Positions 24,001-27,000 of a stretch of DNA of 48,113 nucleotides are shown here, piece by piece. Numbering within the stretch: position 1 is the first letter of the stretch; every line of letters begins with the position of its first letter. Origin of the DNA: a plasmid; sequence record NZ_CP136362.1; one strand, 5' to 3'. The position numbers are program-made.

Positions 24001-27000
24001 TCGATAACAACGCAATGTGGGCCCTCGCCGAATAGCGAGGGCCCACAAATCAGATCGAACACGACAACATCGCGCTCGATCGCAAGTTTACCAAAGGAGA
24101 CTCCAGCATGGCCGCCCGCAACCCCTCAATCTGCATCGACGTTCCCGCCGAGCTAGGCGCCGCTCTCGACGCATTAGCTGAAAGGCGCAACGTAGCCCGG
24201 GCGGTCATCGCTCGCACCGCCCTAGCCGAGGCTTTCCACCTGCCTGACCCGATCAGTGCGGGCCACCGGCGTGGAGCCACACCGGGTCCCCACACCGGCG
24301 ACACGTTTCCGCTGGTGCTGTCGGTCACCCCCCAGATCCGTGCCGCTCTGGCAGACCGTGGCGCCGACGAGCGCGCCAGCCGCGCCGACGTTGCCGCCCG
24401 CATCCTCGCTGACTATCTGACGGCCCATCCAGCCGCCGCCGAACCAGCAGCACCCACAGGCCCTCACGCCACCAACCCGGGACTAGCGCTACGCATTCCC
24501 GACACCCTCGCCCTGGCCCTCGACGCCCTCGTCGCCTATCGCGGAGTCTCCCGGGCTGCCGTGTGCCGCGCCGCGCTATCGGAAGCCCTAGAAGTGCCCG
24601 ACACCATCTCCTCGACGACCCGCGGGCGAGCCACTGGCACCTCCCGCGCCGGAGGAGTCTCAGTCATGCTCACCGTCTCCCCGGACATGCGTGACGCCCT
24701 CGACGCCATGGCTGAGACCACCAGAACCCACCCCTACCGCCTGGCCGTACGCCTCATTGACGACTACATCACCGCCCACTCGATCACCGCCGAACCAGCA
24801 AAAAAGCCCACCACCCCCACACGCGCCACCCCGACACCCCGCGTGTTCAAACTGCCCATCGACCTCCACCGCTCTCTCGCCTTAGCCGCCCAGGAACTTG
24901 GCGTTCCCAAGGCGACCATCGTGCGAGTCGCACTTCGCCGCCACCTGGACGTGCCCGGCTCCGACACGGTTCAGCCGCGCCGCGGGGGACCAGCTGGGGA
25001 CATCCCCAAAGGTCCCGGATCCATCCAGGTTCGGCTCGACTCCGAGGTCGACGCGGCCCTGGAACGAGCCCCAGGCACCATGACCGGCACCGTCCACACC
25101 GCACTGCGGGCCTGGCTCGACAACCCCACCCTCGAAACACTGGCAGCCCTCAGCTCGGGAACAGACCGCCGCCAACGCGGCGTCACCCTCACCGACGACG
25201 CTGAATCCCTCCTGGCTGGATGGCGGATCGACCACCCCGCCCACAGCATCGCCGCGATCATCACCCACGCCTTGGCCGTGGCCGCCGGCATGGAACAGCC
25301 CCCGGCCGCCCTTGACGGCTTCGGCAACCACATCGTTGTCACCCGCGCCCGCCCGCGTTCCTTCTATCTGTCCGCCGAACTTGACCAGTGGCTAACCCGT
25401 CAGAAAACCATCCACCCCGAAGCCACCCTCAAACAGATCATCAGCGACGCCGTGATTGCTTTAGCTAAACACGACTGACTTAGCCCGTCCCGACCCCAGG
25501 AACCCCGATCATCGTCGGCATGGAGAGTTCCCGTCGTGGCGAGGGTGAGAGTGGACAAGGAGCGGCCCGGGCAGATTGTCATGCTTTCGGGACTCCACGC
25601 CCCTATTGTCAAGGGCGCCTGACAGCTCCGCCCCGCGGCGGAGCGTCACGGCACGAAGGTGTCGGCAACGCCGTGATGATGCGGACTTTTTGTCGTATCT
25701 GAAGCAATCCCCAAAAAAGTTCAAACTTTTTTGCACCCGACCGCACATCGGTCATCTCCTTGGTCCCTTCATCCGATGAAGGAGGTGACCGATGCGGTTG
25801 GGACGAGCACACACCACCGGATCGTGGCCACCACTCCTTGCCTTAGCACTGTGCAGGGCCCACCGAAACAAAGAAAGAGGATGCATATGTTGCTGCAACG
25901 CAACCGTGTCGGCGTGATTTCAGCTGGGGTGGCTATGGGGGCGATCGCACTGGGGGTGACACCAGGGATCGCCCACGCTGATCCGTATGTACCTGTGGGT
26001 GGGCGTACCCACTTCGTCGGGACGAAGATCACCGTGGGCGCGCACTGGATCGGCGGCTATACGCTGCGCGACCAGGCCACCGGCAAGACCTCCCTGTTCT
26101 ATTGCGGAGATCCTGAGCGGATGGGGCCGTCATCCGGCGGTGGCTACCATGGCAAGTCCGCTACGCAGTGGCGCACCGATACTGGCGCTCTGCTCGATCA
26201 GAAGCACGTCTCGCAGATTGCCTACGTGCTGGGCAAGTGGGGCCAGATCACGTCGAATAAGCAGGCGTCGGCGGTGGATGCCGCCGTCTACGCCTTGCAG
26301 GGCAAATCGGACTATCAGCTCCACCCCTCGACCCTGGGCTGGAAGCGGGCTCAGCAAGCCGGGGTCACCTCGCGCGCTCAGTCCATGATCACCGAGGCGG
26401 GCCGCTATGCCACCGGATCGGCGTGGCGGCTGAGCGTGTCGGTGCCGAAGTCGGTCACCCCGGGGTCGACGGTGCAGGCCACGGCGTCGGTGCGCACCCG
26501 CACCGGTCGCGGAGTCCCCGGTGTGGCAGTCACGCTGCGCGACCAGGCCACCGGCAAGACCGTCAAGGTGACCACGAGCACCAACGGCACGGCTGTGGCC
26601 CATTTCGCAACCGGGTCAAGCGCCCCGAATGTGCACGCCTCGGCGTCGGTGCCTGCCACCACCTTGCGGTACTGGGCTCCCTCCAAGAGTGGTGCGCAGC
26701 GCATCCTGATGTCGGGGCTCACGATGGGCCTGTCGGCCTCGGCCCACTCGACCTTCCCGGCCCCCAACCTGAAGACCACGGCGCTGGATAAGGCTGATGG
26801 CGATCACATGGTGGTGGCCAAGGGCGGCACGATTGTCGACGTGGCCCGGTACTGGGATGTTGAGCCCGGCAAGGACTACGTCGTTGCCGGTGAACTCATG
26901 GACAGGGCCACGGGTAAGCCGACCGGGATCAAGGCGTCTGCCAAGTTCACTGCGAAGGCCGAGTCCGGCACGGCCAAGGTGGTGTTCACGGTGCCGACCG

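Follow-up and report, generated by a model that had tools for sequence, protein, structure and literature searches.

The window, by which we mean the whole stretch of DNA analysed (48,113 nucleotides, sequence record NZ_CP136362.1), is a C. acnes type II Tad/T4SS plasmid. It contains two elements of about 90% identity on the plus strand, termed type A, at 25713–25812 (copy 1) and 29122–29222 (copy 2). The original prediction had described this pair with a hairpin-forming A/T palindrome and the box CCGCACATCGG, and each of these is present. The two copies are almost free of mismatches from the palindrome to the sequence ATGCG(G/A)TTGGGACGAG. The palindrome of copy 1, AAAAAAGTTCAAACTTTTTT, is read directly in the sequence at 25713–25732, and its counterpart in copy 2, AAAAGAGTTCAAACTTTTTT at 29122–29141, is imperfect. 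The box CCGCACATCGG lies at 25741–25751 and 29151–29161.

Copy 1 consists of box 1, CCGCACAT (25741–25748; 23.3 bits in a position-weight scan), which is the predicted −35 element; a 17-nt spacer, CGGTCATCTCCTTGGTC (25749–25765), which is also the 5′ arm of a long stem; box 2, CCTTCA (25766–25771; located by motif search and the position-weight scan), the predicted −10 element; and box 3, TGAAGG, which is fused with the Shine-Dalgarno (SD) sequence GAAGGAGGTGACC and an ATG at 25792 and makes up with them the 3′ arm of the stem (25777–25794). Copy 2, the predicted promoter of the resident T4SS operon (29151–29204, likewise 23.3 bits), has box 1 at 29151–29158, the spacer at 29159–29175, box 2 at 29176–29181, box 3 plus SD at 29187–29199, and its ATG at 29202.

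The two start codons differ in their frame relative to the downstream gene, as had been noted. The ATG of copy 1 opens a 41-codon ORF (25792–25917, plus strand; MRLGRAHTTGSWPPLLALALC..., traced by local alignment of the two copies) in a frame other than that of the adhesin gene, which starts at 25881/25887 with an ATG and an SD of its own, AAGAGGA. The ATG of copy 2 is in frame with the TcpC-like gene at 29202–30212. The MRLGR sequence, for which a leader peptide had been one suggestion, is the N terminus of the TcpC-like protein in copy 2 and a decayed remnant of it in copy 1. The local alignment of the copies runs beyond a deletion of ~90 nt into the region encoding HTGSMATKGFLALVLCG, and copy 1 continues into a frameshifted, deleted version of the TcpC-like 5′ end.

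Outside 23804–29116, the gene order of the window follows that of the type I plasmid collinearly. The ancestral upstream flank stays with copy 1 and the ancestral downstream sequence with copy 2, and homology to other Cutibacterium plasmids begins at 29117. Between the copies lies an inserted cassette (25816–29116, plus strand) with genes identified by Pfam matches as encoding a T-Q ester/PT-repeat surface protein, a sortase, and a YkuD L,D-transpeptidase-like protein; neither the type I plasmids of C. acnes nor those of C. modestum have it. Judged from these alignments, the type A copies arose when the predicted T4SS promoter and the 5′ end of the TcpC-like gene were directly duplicated, and they are so alike because this duplication, which flanks the cassette, is recent. 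Insertion of the cassette would have duplicated the promoter along with the initial ~58 codons of the TcpC-like gene, so that the upstream copy would now drive the cassette and the downstream copy would still drive the T4SS operon.

A type II-specific insertion in the large plasmids of C. acnes is already known (Davidsson et al. 2017, PMC5696575). It agrees with the cassette in its position, upstream of the tad locus, and in its genes, which encode an SrtE-type sortase, a surface protein with PT repeats, and a protein with an L,D-transpeptidase domain; two of the proteins are made. The passages of that report covered here mention neither a bracketing duplication of the T4SS promoter and gene 5′ end nor a promoter family. 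The decayed gene fragment in copy 1 and the separate SD and ATG of the adhesin gene are what would be expected if the type A copies were mere scars of the insertion, with copy 1 non-functional and the cassette expressed from elsewhere. However, the boxes, spacing, and A/T palindrome of copy 1 are intact, with a score equal to that of copy 2, and the survival of the motif next to a decayed coding remnant points to selective retention. Furthermore, the stretch from the upstream terminator-like hairpin to the adhesin gene holds no sigma-70-like promoter, and two cassette proteins are produced (PMC5696575). We regard the scar explanation as very unlikely, and the claim that a cis-regulatory element is common to the surface-protein operon and the transfer operon holds.

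A repeated bipartite motif at operon starts

The type A core, CCGCACAT-N17-CCTTCA-N4-6-TGAAGG, occurs in the window in seven copies plus one degenerate copy. The recurrence of the core elsewhere in the window had been missed in the earlier note. The pattern CGCACAT-N(12-30)-CTTCA has seven matches, versus 0.15 expected, at 25741, 29151, 37450, 40608, and 43026 on the plus strand and at 42531 and 6731 on the minus strand. The position-weight scan is bimodal, with seven sites at ≥19.5 bits and everything else at ≤12.2 bits; shuffled controls gave 1.1 matches at ≥15 bits. All seven copies are on the coding strand, 25–80 nt 5′ of a start codon that is preceded by an SD.

Copy 3 (37450–37505, plus strand, 24.2 bits) has box 1 at 37450–37457, box 2 at 37475–37480, TGAAG at 37485–37489, and an ATG at 37503. 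Its box 1 starts 8 nt past the stop codon of the preceding gene, and a WhiB-like gene and an FtsK-like translocase gene lie downstream. Copy 4 (40608–40673, plus strand, 22.9 bits) comprises box 1 at 40608–40615, box 2 at 40633–40638, TGAAGG at 40643–40648, and an ATG at 40671. Copy 5 (43026–43089, plus strand, 24.5 bits), with box 1 at 43026–43033, box 2 at 43051–43056, TGAAGG at 43061–43066, and an ATG at 43087, precedes an operon of a GNAT gene and genes for a 173-aa HTH protein, a 566-aa protein, and a 264-aa HTH protein. On the minus strand, copy 6 (42474–42531, 19.5 bits) has box 1 at 42531–42524, an 18-nt spacer, box 2 at 42505–42500, TGAACG at 42495–42490, and an ATG at 42476. An upstream ORF ending at the TGA of box 3 was found for copy 6 only and was discarded as a general feature. 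Copy 7 (6644–6731, minus strand, 22.5 bits; orthologue at 45531 of the C. acnes type I plasmid, L001) has box 1 at 6731–6724, box 2 at 6706–6701, and TGAAGG at 6694–6689, and it lies upstream of a 129-aa gene with an ATG at 6646 on the same strand. The degenerate eighth copy (8971–9013, minus strand), a paralogue of copy 7, reads CCTGCATAT, a 15-nt spacer, and CCTTCA-AAAGTG-TGAAGG. The small gene downstream of it (8597–8905) has a collinear counterpart in L001 that is annotated as CopG-family ribbon-helix-helix, and the label is transferred here by that collinearity.

The distance between boxes 1 and 2 is 17 nt in six of the seven copies and 18 nt in the other. Spacer sequences are unrelated between paralogues and even between orthologues, and the boxes and spacing are kept. 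Thus, the C. modestum M12 orthologue of copy 3 (L049) has a wholly different spacer with the same boxes and spacing, and in sister plasmids the spacer of copy 1 is kept in length but not in sequence. Box 1 of copy 1 is invariant across the aligned orthologues, and the core of box 2, C-T-(T/A)-C, is retained in Cutibacterium-like lineages and in R. fascians. No extra complement of box 1, as a trans-acting antisense partner would provide, is present in the window. Conservation of two boxes at a fixed 17-nt distance around a free spacer argues for a promoter footprint and not an RNA helix.

The A/T palindrome is kept in 6/6 of the T4SS-promoter orthologues and paralogues aligned. Most other copies have a similar A/T tract 7–25 nt 5′ of box 1, and R. 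fascians and R. qingshengii have one of the form AAAAAAGTTCG. In copy 1 the palindrome is likely a UP-like element or a binding site, ~45–65 nt 5′ of the predicted transcription start. An alternative register, with box 1 as the −10 element and the A/T tract as the −35 element, was rejected because the distance from tract to box 1 varies from 7 to ~25 nt.

The architecture of two boxes and a fixed spacer was seen in at least five other plasmid lineages, each with its own boxes. R. fascians has CTGTCACAG-N17-TCTACC, R. qingshengii CCTGTCACAG-N16-AACCTCC, Micrococcus pLMV7 GTGAAACGTC-N16-GGCmTACC, and Microbacterium ATGTCC-N16-CCGGCCTATAC, each of them twice, and a Clavibacter plasmid has its own version of the bipartite motif. 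Boxes around a spacer of fixed length and free sequence are also found in the more distant relatives L057, L061, L065, L071, and L073. Across 185,579 species representatives, the strict pattern was found in 55 stretches and in no Cutibacterium chromosome. Those that were checked, namely the loci on C. modestum plasmids and a single contaminant contig, are real; the others are single matches in unrelated taxa, at about the number expected by chance. A relaxed regular expression applied to distant metagenomic loci recovered only L071 and L073, which indicates that other lineages use different boxes, as the annotated plasmids confirm. Literature searches returned only primer noise for CCGCACAT, and no description of the motif in work on plasmid sigma factors in actinobacterial conjugation.

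Boxes 2 and 3 together form a palindromic piece at the same place in seven to eight predicted promoters of one plasmid. CCTTCA-N4-6-TGAAGG may thus be the operator of a global plasmid repressor, for example a ribbon-helix-helix protein, lying over the −10/+1 region. Ribbon-helix-helix genes are indeed present (the protein encoded at 24108–25478 and, by the annotation of its L001 counterpart, the gene behind the eighth copy), and R. qingshengii and Micrococcus have lineage-specific palindromes in the corresponding place. KorA and KorB of IncP/RK2 plasmids control global plasmid regulons through repeated operators at operon heads, and these operators overlap the −10/+1 region of the promoter. 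The element here likewise is short, is repeated at most backbone operon starts of a conjugative plasmid, and is partly palindromic with an overlap of the −10 region. Unlike the Kor operators, the Cutibacterium unit is asymmetric, since box 1 differs from box 2, and is strictly oriented with the gene. The gap between the half-sites also varies (4, 5, or 6 nt in the window, 9 nt in L068), which is unusual for a dimeric DNA-binding protein, and several lineages retain boxes 1 and 2 but lack the repeat. No candidate protein is linked to the palindrome. An operator could coexist with a sigma factor-dependent promoter, and as an explanation in its own right we consider it improbable.

The long stem over the ribosome-binding site of the type A copies

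RNA folding bore out the predicted stem over the SD and ATG in both type A copies. The fold of copy 1 has an energy of −38.8 kcal/mol (z = −5.0; equalled by 0/200 shuffles), and that of copy 2 has −32.8 kcal/mol (z = −3.0). The stem pairs GGTCAyCTCCTT with AAGGAGGTGACC, and in copy 1 an additional ACCGCA/TGCGGT pairing extends across the ATG. The spacer of copy 1 contains an 11/12 mimic of the 16S rRNA 3′ end in its general bacterial sequence. The 12-nt anti-SD mimic in the type A copies (p = 0.002 per copy) is far too good for chance, and something created or selected it. Any RNA with both arms would have its SD and ATG buried.

The original prediction described the elements as conserved structured 5′ leaders that look like translational control by RBS sequestration, a leader peptide, or an attenuator. 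In such a model, a transcribed hairpin would hide the SD and start codon of the first gene, as a riboregulator, an attenuator, or a leader peptide, with CCUUC of box 2 as the anti-SD and GAAGG of box 3 as its SD-like partner. The very stable type A stems are consistent with such a leader, as is the SD of C. modestum and L068, which still pairs, in another register, with a CCCTTCAT repeat; L071 has a spacer-SD pairing of its own. No plus-strand terminator separates the YkuD gene from copy 2, so that read-through into the latter is likely, and a strong sigma-70-like match (TCGACA-16-TATAAT, 28874–28901) could give a long-leader transcript across copy 2.

However, on sister plasmids the long stem fails the check for conservation and covariation that the original prediction had itself named as decisive against it. 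Upstream of the T4SS genes in C. modestum and the metagenomic locus L068, the orthologous sequence differs at 8–9 of the 17 positions of the 5′ arm; the 3′ arm is invariant, and there are no compensatory changes. The stability falls to −22 kcal/mol, with z = −1.6 and −0.65. The five other copies in the window have folding z values from +1.0 to −2.0. Complementarity between spacer and SD is significant in 3 of 19 instances, namely both type A copies and a single distant locus; general spacer/SD pairing is ruled out by its absence from the remaining 16.

The shorter hairpin between box 2 and box 3 beats shuffles in 11 of 25 instances (p ≤ 0.05) from several lineages, which is in keeping with a leader. 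Box 3, with its complementarity to box 2 over 6 bp, is kept within the Cutibacterium lineage and is seen again in L071, L073, and R. qingshengii. Yet a swap test led us to reject compensatory evolution of this hairpin: in the lineages where box 2 has changed (L057, L065, L061, and R. fascians), a foreign 3′ arm pairs as well as the cognate one.

The leader explanation also leaves a fixed 17-nt, sequence-free linker between the conserved boxes without an RNA rationale, and it needs a further promoter upstream of every copy, including copy 3 with its 8 nt after a stop codon. SD-sequestering leaders include RNA thermometers such as ROSE and fourU. The type A elements resemble them in that the anti-SD mimic pairs perfectly with the SD and the stem spans the AUG. 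They differ in that the stem is far too stable for a thermometer, −33 to −39 kcal/mol amounting to a permanent off state; that there is no evident alternative, anti-sequestering fold and no ligand pocket; and that the 5′ arm is probably upstream of the predicted transcription start. Rfam 15 gave no match at gathering thresholds over the whole window, in agreement with the earlier statement that the element could not be matched to a known riboswitch, and none at E ≤ 1 over 25600–29400. Unlike the cis-regulatory leaders of Rfam, the type A stem thus lacks a family match as well as orthologue conservation and covariation. The shared element and the stable stem of the original prediction therefore stand, but its conserved leader under translational control does not, and we consider that explanation unlikely. 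The long hairpin over the ribosome-binding site is most likely a recent, non-conserved extra that is specific to a sub-lineage.

The divergent ECF-like sigma factor gene and a proposed promoter reading of the motif

Beside the T4SS operon, back-to-back with it, lies a divergent ECF-like sigma factor gene (22567–23253, minus strand). The protein has 228 aa when counted from M15 of the ORF 22567–23295. It has a weak Pfam match to Sigma70_r4_2, and a homologue carries the NCBI name 'RNA polymerase sigma factor'. Within the family, 32 of 66 members match Sigma70_r4_2 and 7 of 66 match Sigma70_ECF; no Pfam region-2 match reaches significance. A family profile searched against the PDB matches SigL (6dv9_F; query residues 89–224, E = 1.4e-6) and also CnrH, SigE, and SigK. 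The AF2 model has a pLDDT of 91.9, and nearly all of its top 40 Foldseek matches in the PDB are sigma factors, mostly of the ECF type; the best ones (sigmaE, AlgU, SigL, BldN, and SigH) have E values of ~1e-3 to 1e-2 and probabilities of 0.98–1.0 over 170–200 columns. By profile and model, the protein has sigma-2 and sigma-4 domains, as ECF sigma factors do, and region 3 is absent. One report already names the C. acnes gene as a sigma-70 family factor (PMC3666418).

Related loci were sought with a 10-sequence sigma alignment. Homologues occupy the same divergent place next to the T4SS operon in those related plasmids that are long enough to show it, and plasmids of Rhodococcus, Clavibacter, Micrococcus, and Microbacterium keep the gene there. 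The R. qingshengii homologue is annotated as a sigma-70 family sigma factor. Taken together with the lineage-specific boxes, these comparisons suggest that the sigma factor and the motif co-diverge across related plasmids.

We propose, with a probability of roughly 60%, that the element is a promoter read by the plasmid's own ECF-like sigma factor, and that the type A pair are duplicates of one such promoter. The assignment of the −35 and −10 elements draws on architecture and association. Box 1, CCGCACAT(C), would be the −35 element and box 2, CCTTCA, the −10 element, 17 nt apart, with the A/T tract upstream at the position of an UP element. Transcription would start in or beside box 3, 6–9 nt past box 2, and the most likely reader of the motif would be the divergent sigma factor encoded at 22567–23253. 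Seven putative promoters and one decayed copy would head operons of the plasmid, with the T4SS genes, the WhiB-like/FtsK-like pair, the surface-protein cassette, and several operons of regulators or proteins of unknown function as targets.

A housekeeping promoter was rejected, since neither box fits TTGACA or TAnnnT in any register, and a consensus scan that took in the copies and the sequence immediately 5′ of them found no sigma-70-like site there. A single-strand (Frpo-like) promoter for early expression in the recipient was rejected because the copies are on both strands and head late (T4SS) operons.

The closest known promoters are those of ECF (group 4) sigma factors, which likewise have two short conserved boxes, a spacer of fixed length and free sequence, and a cognate sigma gene encoded next to the target operon. 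The ECF41 promoter is TGTCACA-n16-CGTC (Wecke et al. 2012, PMC3426412), and the Rhodococcus box 1, CTGTCACAG, contains its −35 element, TGTCACA. Micrococcus has GTGAAAC, which resembles the classical ECF 'AAC' −35 element, and the Cutibacterium CGCACAT is only related. GAAAC is a known ECF −35 type. The plasmid motif differs from ECF promoters in its −10-like box, which is CCTTCA, CTACC, or CTCCTC and not the usual CGTC, and in the distance of ~19 nt from CACA to CTTC; CCTTCA also lacks the A of a housekeeping −10 element. The sigma protein has an N-terminal extension of ~55 residues and lacks an ECF41-type C-terminal domain, and its predicted regulon consists of plasmid transfer and surface genes. 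Ahead of its gene, on the minus strand upstream of 23253–23295, there is no position-weight match of ≥9 bits, and GTTGTC repeats are found instead; autoregulation is common among ECF sigma factors and not universal.

The unusual −10-like box, the lack of the motif ahead of the sigma gene, the anti-SD mimic of type A, and the sigma-70-like match at 28874–28901 speak against the proposal, and box 3 and its complementarity to box 2 are unexplained by a plain promoter model. With a transcription start at box 3, the mRNA would leave out the 5′ arm and begin with an exposed, very strong SD. Only longer transcripts entering from upstream would then fold and be translationally silent, which is the most speculative step of the proposal. 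A bolder version, which we hold to be doubtful, makes type A a promoter inside a hairpin that serves as a translational insulator, together with a 'conjugation sigma factor' that Tad/T4SS plasmids across Actinomycetota would share and that would have co-diverged with its promoters. Transcripts that the sigma factor starts at box 3 would be free of the anti-SD arm and expose a perfect 12-nt SD. Those entering by read-through from the cassette, or from a housekeeping promoter such as 28874–28901, would hold both arms, fold with −33 to −39 kcal/mol, and could not be translated. Synthesis of the first T4SS protein would in that case follow strictly from the transcription start and not from mere transcription of the region.

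Our literature search indicates that the regulation of T4SS-type conjugative plasmids in Actinomycetota has for the most part not been charted; such plasmids occur in Cutibacterium, Rhodococcus, Clavibacter, Micrococcus, and Microbacterium, and many are known from Streptomyces. The outcome here is a sound annotation and a testable hypothesis; the mechanism is not of a new kind. If the sigma factor does read the motif, one plasmid-borne ECF-like protein would, through seven to eight easily recognisable promoters, switch on the transfer machinery, the WhiB-like/FtsK-like translocase pair, the host-interaction surface-protein cassette, and several regulator operons. Expression of the type II adhesin cassette would be accounted for by an insertion that came with a duplicate T4SS promoter. 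The proposal would also provide a concrete regulon and cis element for experiments and make the promoters of transfer genes predictable in related plasmids.

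A repeated bipartite element on the plasmid

Two near-identical elements lie where the original prediction placed them, at 25713 and 29122. Their likeness runs from an A/T palindrome to ATGCG(G/A)TTGGGACGAG, and the predicted box CCGCACATCGG is present in both, at 25741 and 29151. A pattern scan for CGCACAT-N(12-30)-CTTCA found seven sites in the window (25741+, 29151+, 37450+, 40608+, 43026+, 42531- and 6731-), compared with 0.15 expected. The core element is a repeat family rather than a pair. The common layout consists of an A/T tract, CCGCACAT (box 1), 17 nt (18 once), CCTTCA (box 2), 4-6 nt, TGAAGG (box 3), a Shine-Dalgarno (SD) sequence and ATG, and an SD sequence and start codon of matching orientation follow 25-80 nt downstream of each of the seven sites. 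Using a position-weight matrix, the seven score 19.5-24.5 bits, and everything else in the 96 kb of both strands scores 12.2 bits or less. A decayed eighth copy is situated at 9013-8971 on the minus strand, and orthologues of copies 2-7 occur on the type I C. acnes plasmid NC_021086. On the minus strand, an ORF at 42493-42942 precedes copy 6, and its stop codon, the TGA at 42493-42495, is part of box 3 (TGAACG). Because copy 6 overlaps the end of this coding region, it is predicted to be an internal promoter.

In the C. modestum M12 orthologue of copy 3 the spacer is wholly different (CCAGGAGCGTGCAGACA vs CGGCCGGGTCTAGGGAA), and both boxes and the 17-nt distance are retained. Across six aligned T4SS upstream regions, orthologous or paralogous, GACCGCACAT, TCCCTTCAT, TGAAGGAGGTGACC.ATGCG and the A/T palindrome are unchanged; the spacer keeps its length, and 8-9 of its 17 positions differ in C. 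modestum and in the metagenomic sister plasmid L068. More distant relatives (VirB4-like or sigma identity of 35-57%) keep the plan with slightly altered boxes, namely TCGCACAT-N17/18-CTTTCC in L065, TTGCACAT-N17-CTTACC in L057, CTCACAT-N17-CCTTCC in L061, CCTCACATC..GGCCTTCA in L071 and GCGTCACATC..GGCCTTCA in L073. The plan also recurs in annotated plasmids from other genera, twice on each, with lineage-specific boxes and unrelated spacers: CTGTCACAG-N17-TCTACC in R. fascians pFiD188, CCTGTCACAG-N16-AACCTCC in R. qingshengii, ATGTCC-N16-CCGGCCTATAC in Microbacterium, and GTGAAACGTC-N16-GGCmTACC in Micrococcus pLMV7, where it heads both the T4SS and the tad operons. Clavibacter pCSL1 belongs with these plasmids.

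Two boxes conserved in sequence and set a constant distance apart by a free spacer, with an A/T tract before them and an orientation that always follows the gene, are the anatomy of a putative bipartite promoter, with box 1 as the predicted -35 and box 2 as the predicted -10 element. On this reading, primary 5' ends would fall 6-9 nt past CCTTCA, at about 25778-25781, 29188-29191, 37485-37488, 40644-40647 and 43062-43065, and on the minus strand at about 42494-42491 and 6693-6690. The classical ECF -35 core is GAAAC. For ECF41 promoters, a -35 element TGTCACA has been published (PMC3426412).

When one genome per species (185,579 species) was scanned with a strict pattern, the motif was found only on C. 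modestum plasmid contigs and one contaminant contig, and on no Cutibacterium chromosome; the other stretches that fitted the pattern are single hits in unrelated taxa, about as many as chance would give. This restriction to plasmid contigs favours a plasmid-encoded reader over one supplied by the host. The contaminant (NZ_JABLTE010000293.1, 468 nt, coverage 0.72), filed under Nocardia barduliensis, is near-identical to the copy 5 region and is almost certainly skin-bacterium contamination of that assembly.

A sigma-like gene as candidate reader

A sigma-like ORF at 22567-23295 (minus), probably starting at M15, gives a weak Sigma70_r4_2 match, and its C terminus ATVRSRCRDGRAAMR resembles ECF region 4.2. 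The C. acnes homologue, 86% identical, carries the NCBI name 'RNA polymerase sigma factor', and Kasimatis et al. assigned the C. acnes gene, which they placed upstream of the tad locus, to the sigma-70 family (PMC3666418). The family comprises 678 representatives (E <= 1e-3); among 66 aligned members, Sigma70_r4_2 is recognized in 32 and Sigma70_ECF in 7. A profile of the family aligns with M. tuberculosis SigL across residues 89-224 (E = 1.4e-6), and CnrH, SigE and SigK are matched as well. The AlphaFold model of the protein has a pLDDT of 91.9, and the top 40 Foldseek matches in the PDB are nearly all sigma factors, mostly ECF (sigmaE, AlgU, SigL, BldN and SigH), at modest E-values of about 1e-3 to 1e-2 and with probabilities of 0.98-1.0 for the leading matches.

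Sigma homologues stand back-to-back with the T4SS operon, in the same position, on the type I plasmid and at the related loci L057 and L064-L066. The same position is occupied by homologues in R. fascians (E = 1.5e-30) and Clavibacter (E = 1.7e-19), and by size-matched genes in Microbacterium, Micrococcus and R. qingshengii, the last annotated as a sigma-70 family sigma factor. From this association, and from the co-divergence of gene and boxes, we infer that the plasmid sigma factor may read the motif. In our preferred reading, to which we assign a probability of roughly 0.6, the element serves as a promoter within a plasmid ECF-like sigma regulon and was duplicated together with the insertion of a surface-protein cassette; the sigma factor would read bipartite promoters that head the operons.

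Several other features were noted around regulatory genes. Directly upstream of the sigma-like gene, three GTTGTC repeats (GACAAC on the gene strand) lie at 23305-23350, two of them (CGTTGTC) 21 nt apart, and similar GGTTGTC/GACAACC arrays occupy the same place in L057 (2820-2900) and L065 (about 9900-9960). The array probably serves as an operator through which another regulator governs sigma expression. An A/T-rich intergenic patch at 23588-23627, between the sigma gene and a ribbon-helix-helix gene, contains the imperfect inverted repeat AGGTATATCGATG / CATCGATCTATCT. Just upstream of a ParA-like gene (ORF 21443-22432, minus), a perfect 10-bp inverted repeat lies at 22442-22466 (TGTCTAGCCG / CGGCTAGACA, containing CCGCATATCGG), and several boxes with CTAG come after it, up to about 22530. 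It scores only 9.0 bits with the position-weight matrix and looks like a partition or operator site, not like another copy of the promoter element. In the copy 5 operon, a 173-aa protein (44091-44612) has a C terminus, ATIAEVAGVSRGRVYQLRE, similar to the sigma region-4 helix-turn-helix, and weak Pfam matches to Sigma70_r4 and DIP2311-like_C; on this sequence likeness it may be a second regulator.

Stems and inverted repeats

The original prediction saw translational control in the paired elements, with the ribosome binding site and start codon buried in a long hairpin. The stems are indeed stable on RNA folding, at -38.8 kcal/mol (z = -5.0) for copy 1 and -32.8 kcal/mol (z = -3.0) for copy 2. 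Folded as RNA, GGTCAyCTCCTT pairs with AAGGAGGTGACC, so that the 3' arm is the SD sequence and start codon, and in copy 1 an extra ACCGCA/TGCGGT pairing spans the start codon. The description also holds for the 41-codon ORF that copy 1 opens out of frame (25792-25917) and for the ATG at 29202, which in copy 2 is in frame. What did not hold is conservation of the mechanism. The stem loses stability without compensation in C. modestum (-22.3 kcal/mol, z = -1.6) and L068 (-21.7 kcal/mol, z = -0.65), and covariation is missing, since the 3' arm never changes to compensate in the six aligned T4SS upstream regions. The long stem is specific to the sub-lineage of the window.

Complementarity between spacer and SD sequence is significant in 3 of 19 instances, namely both type A copies (p = 0.002 for either one) and L071 (p = 0.026), and none of the remaining five copies in the window folds more stably than shuffled sequence (z from +1.0 to -2.0). 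The inverted repeat of boxes 2 and 3 outperforms shuffled sequence in 11 of the 25 instances, which come from the Cutibacterium lineage, L071, L073 and R. qingshengii; among these 25 it is absent from L065, L057, L061, R. fascians, Micrococcus and Microbacterium. In an arm-swap test on lineages with an altered box 2, the cognate 3' arm has no pairing advantage over foreign arms. This distribution indicates that only the bipartite boxes are universal, with the repeats as accessories of particular lineages. The box 2/box 3 repeats could be a repressor site, though their spacing varies from 4 to 9 nt, a 5'-terminal SD-like sequence, or a structure formed only in read-through RNA.

Translational control of a transcribed leader is thus unsupported as a conserved mechanism and we consider it improbable, although it is conceivable for long transcripts that cross the two type A copies. 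The anti-SD mimic of these copies is too good for chance. Under the promoter reading, transcription would start at box 3, leaving the 5' arm outside the mRNA, and the message would open with a perfect 12-nt SD sequence; folding, and with it translational silence, would be confined to transcripts that come in from upstream. Such a role of the type A element as a translational insulator is a doubtful proposition. No plus-strand terminator was found between the YkuD gene and copy 2. A strong sigma-70-like match (TCGACA, 16 nt, TATAAT; 11/12) lies at 28874-28901, within the 3' portion of the YkuD-like gene and some 250 nt ahead of copy 2, and if active it would yield a long-leader transcript through the copy 2 hairpin.

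Duplication, cassette insertion and plasmid context

Cutibacterium acnes and C. modestum carry large Tad/Flp-pilus plasmids, to which the window is related. It encodes a TcpC-like protein, a VirB4-like ATPase, an NlpC/P60 hydrolase, a WhiB-like protein and an FtsK-like translocase, with the tad locus on the opposite strand. Its collinearity with the type I plasmid extends over 2380-23803 and 29117-48042; the segment between them, 23804-29116, is extra. Copy 1 keeps the ancestral upstream flank (25666-25815 matches L001, the type I locus, at 28286-28136), and the start of copy 2 coincides exactly with the resumption of homology to the type I plasmid. Past GGGACGAG, copy 1 has a deletion of ~90 nt and then homology to codons ~37-58 of the TcpC-like gene, where CACCGGATCG-TGGCCACCA..CTCCTTGCC..CTGTGC matches the copy 2 region coding HTGSMATKGFLALVLCG. 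The ancestral flanks and the TcpC-like remnant indicate that the copies are a direct duplication of the T4SS promoter and the 5' end of its gene. The proposed MRLGR leader peptide is accordingly a decayed gene start, which in copy 1 runs into this remnant, and not an evolved leader.

The copies flank a cassette of a T-Q ester/PT-repeat surface protein, a sortase and a YkuD-type protein, which is the 'type II-specific insertion' known from C. acnes type II plasmids. A published study detected two of the cassette proteins in secretome and surface fractions (PMC5696575). A perfect 14-bp inverted repeat with arms 21 nt apart (CCCATTGCTAGACG ... CGTCTAGCAATGGG, 23741-23789) sits where the extra region begins on the left, immediately before an ORF that starts at 23785. 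The centre of the A/T palindrome at 25713-25732 reads AAAAAAGTT-CA-AACTTTTTT in the window and ...GTT-TG-AAC... in the type I C. acnes (L001, about 28225-28245) and C. modestum plasmids; a flipped central dinucleotide would be the outcome expected from hairpin-loop inversion.

The small WhiB-like protein encoded before the FtsK-like gene (37503-37781) has a weak Pfam Whib match and a Cys-rich C..C..C motif. A small gene precedes the FtsK-like gene in every related plasmid examined (syntenic in L057, L062, L063, L065 and L114) and has its own promoter-motif copy in Cutibacterium, L065, R. fascians and R. qingshengii. A gene at 7054-8244 (minus), downstream of the decayed eighth copy with its small gene, codes for a fusion of a Nudix domain and a LOG/'lysine decarboxylase'-family (TIGR00730-type) domain; a TIGR00730-family gene is also present on the R. 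fascians plasmid locus, in the fas cytokinin region.

An ECF-type sigma factor with its promoters is a known mechanism, and the predicted regulon bears on how actinobacterial conjugative plasmids are regulated.
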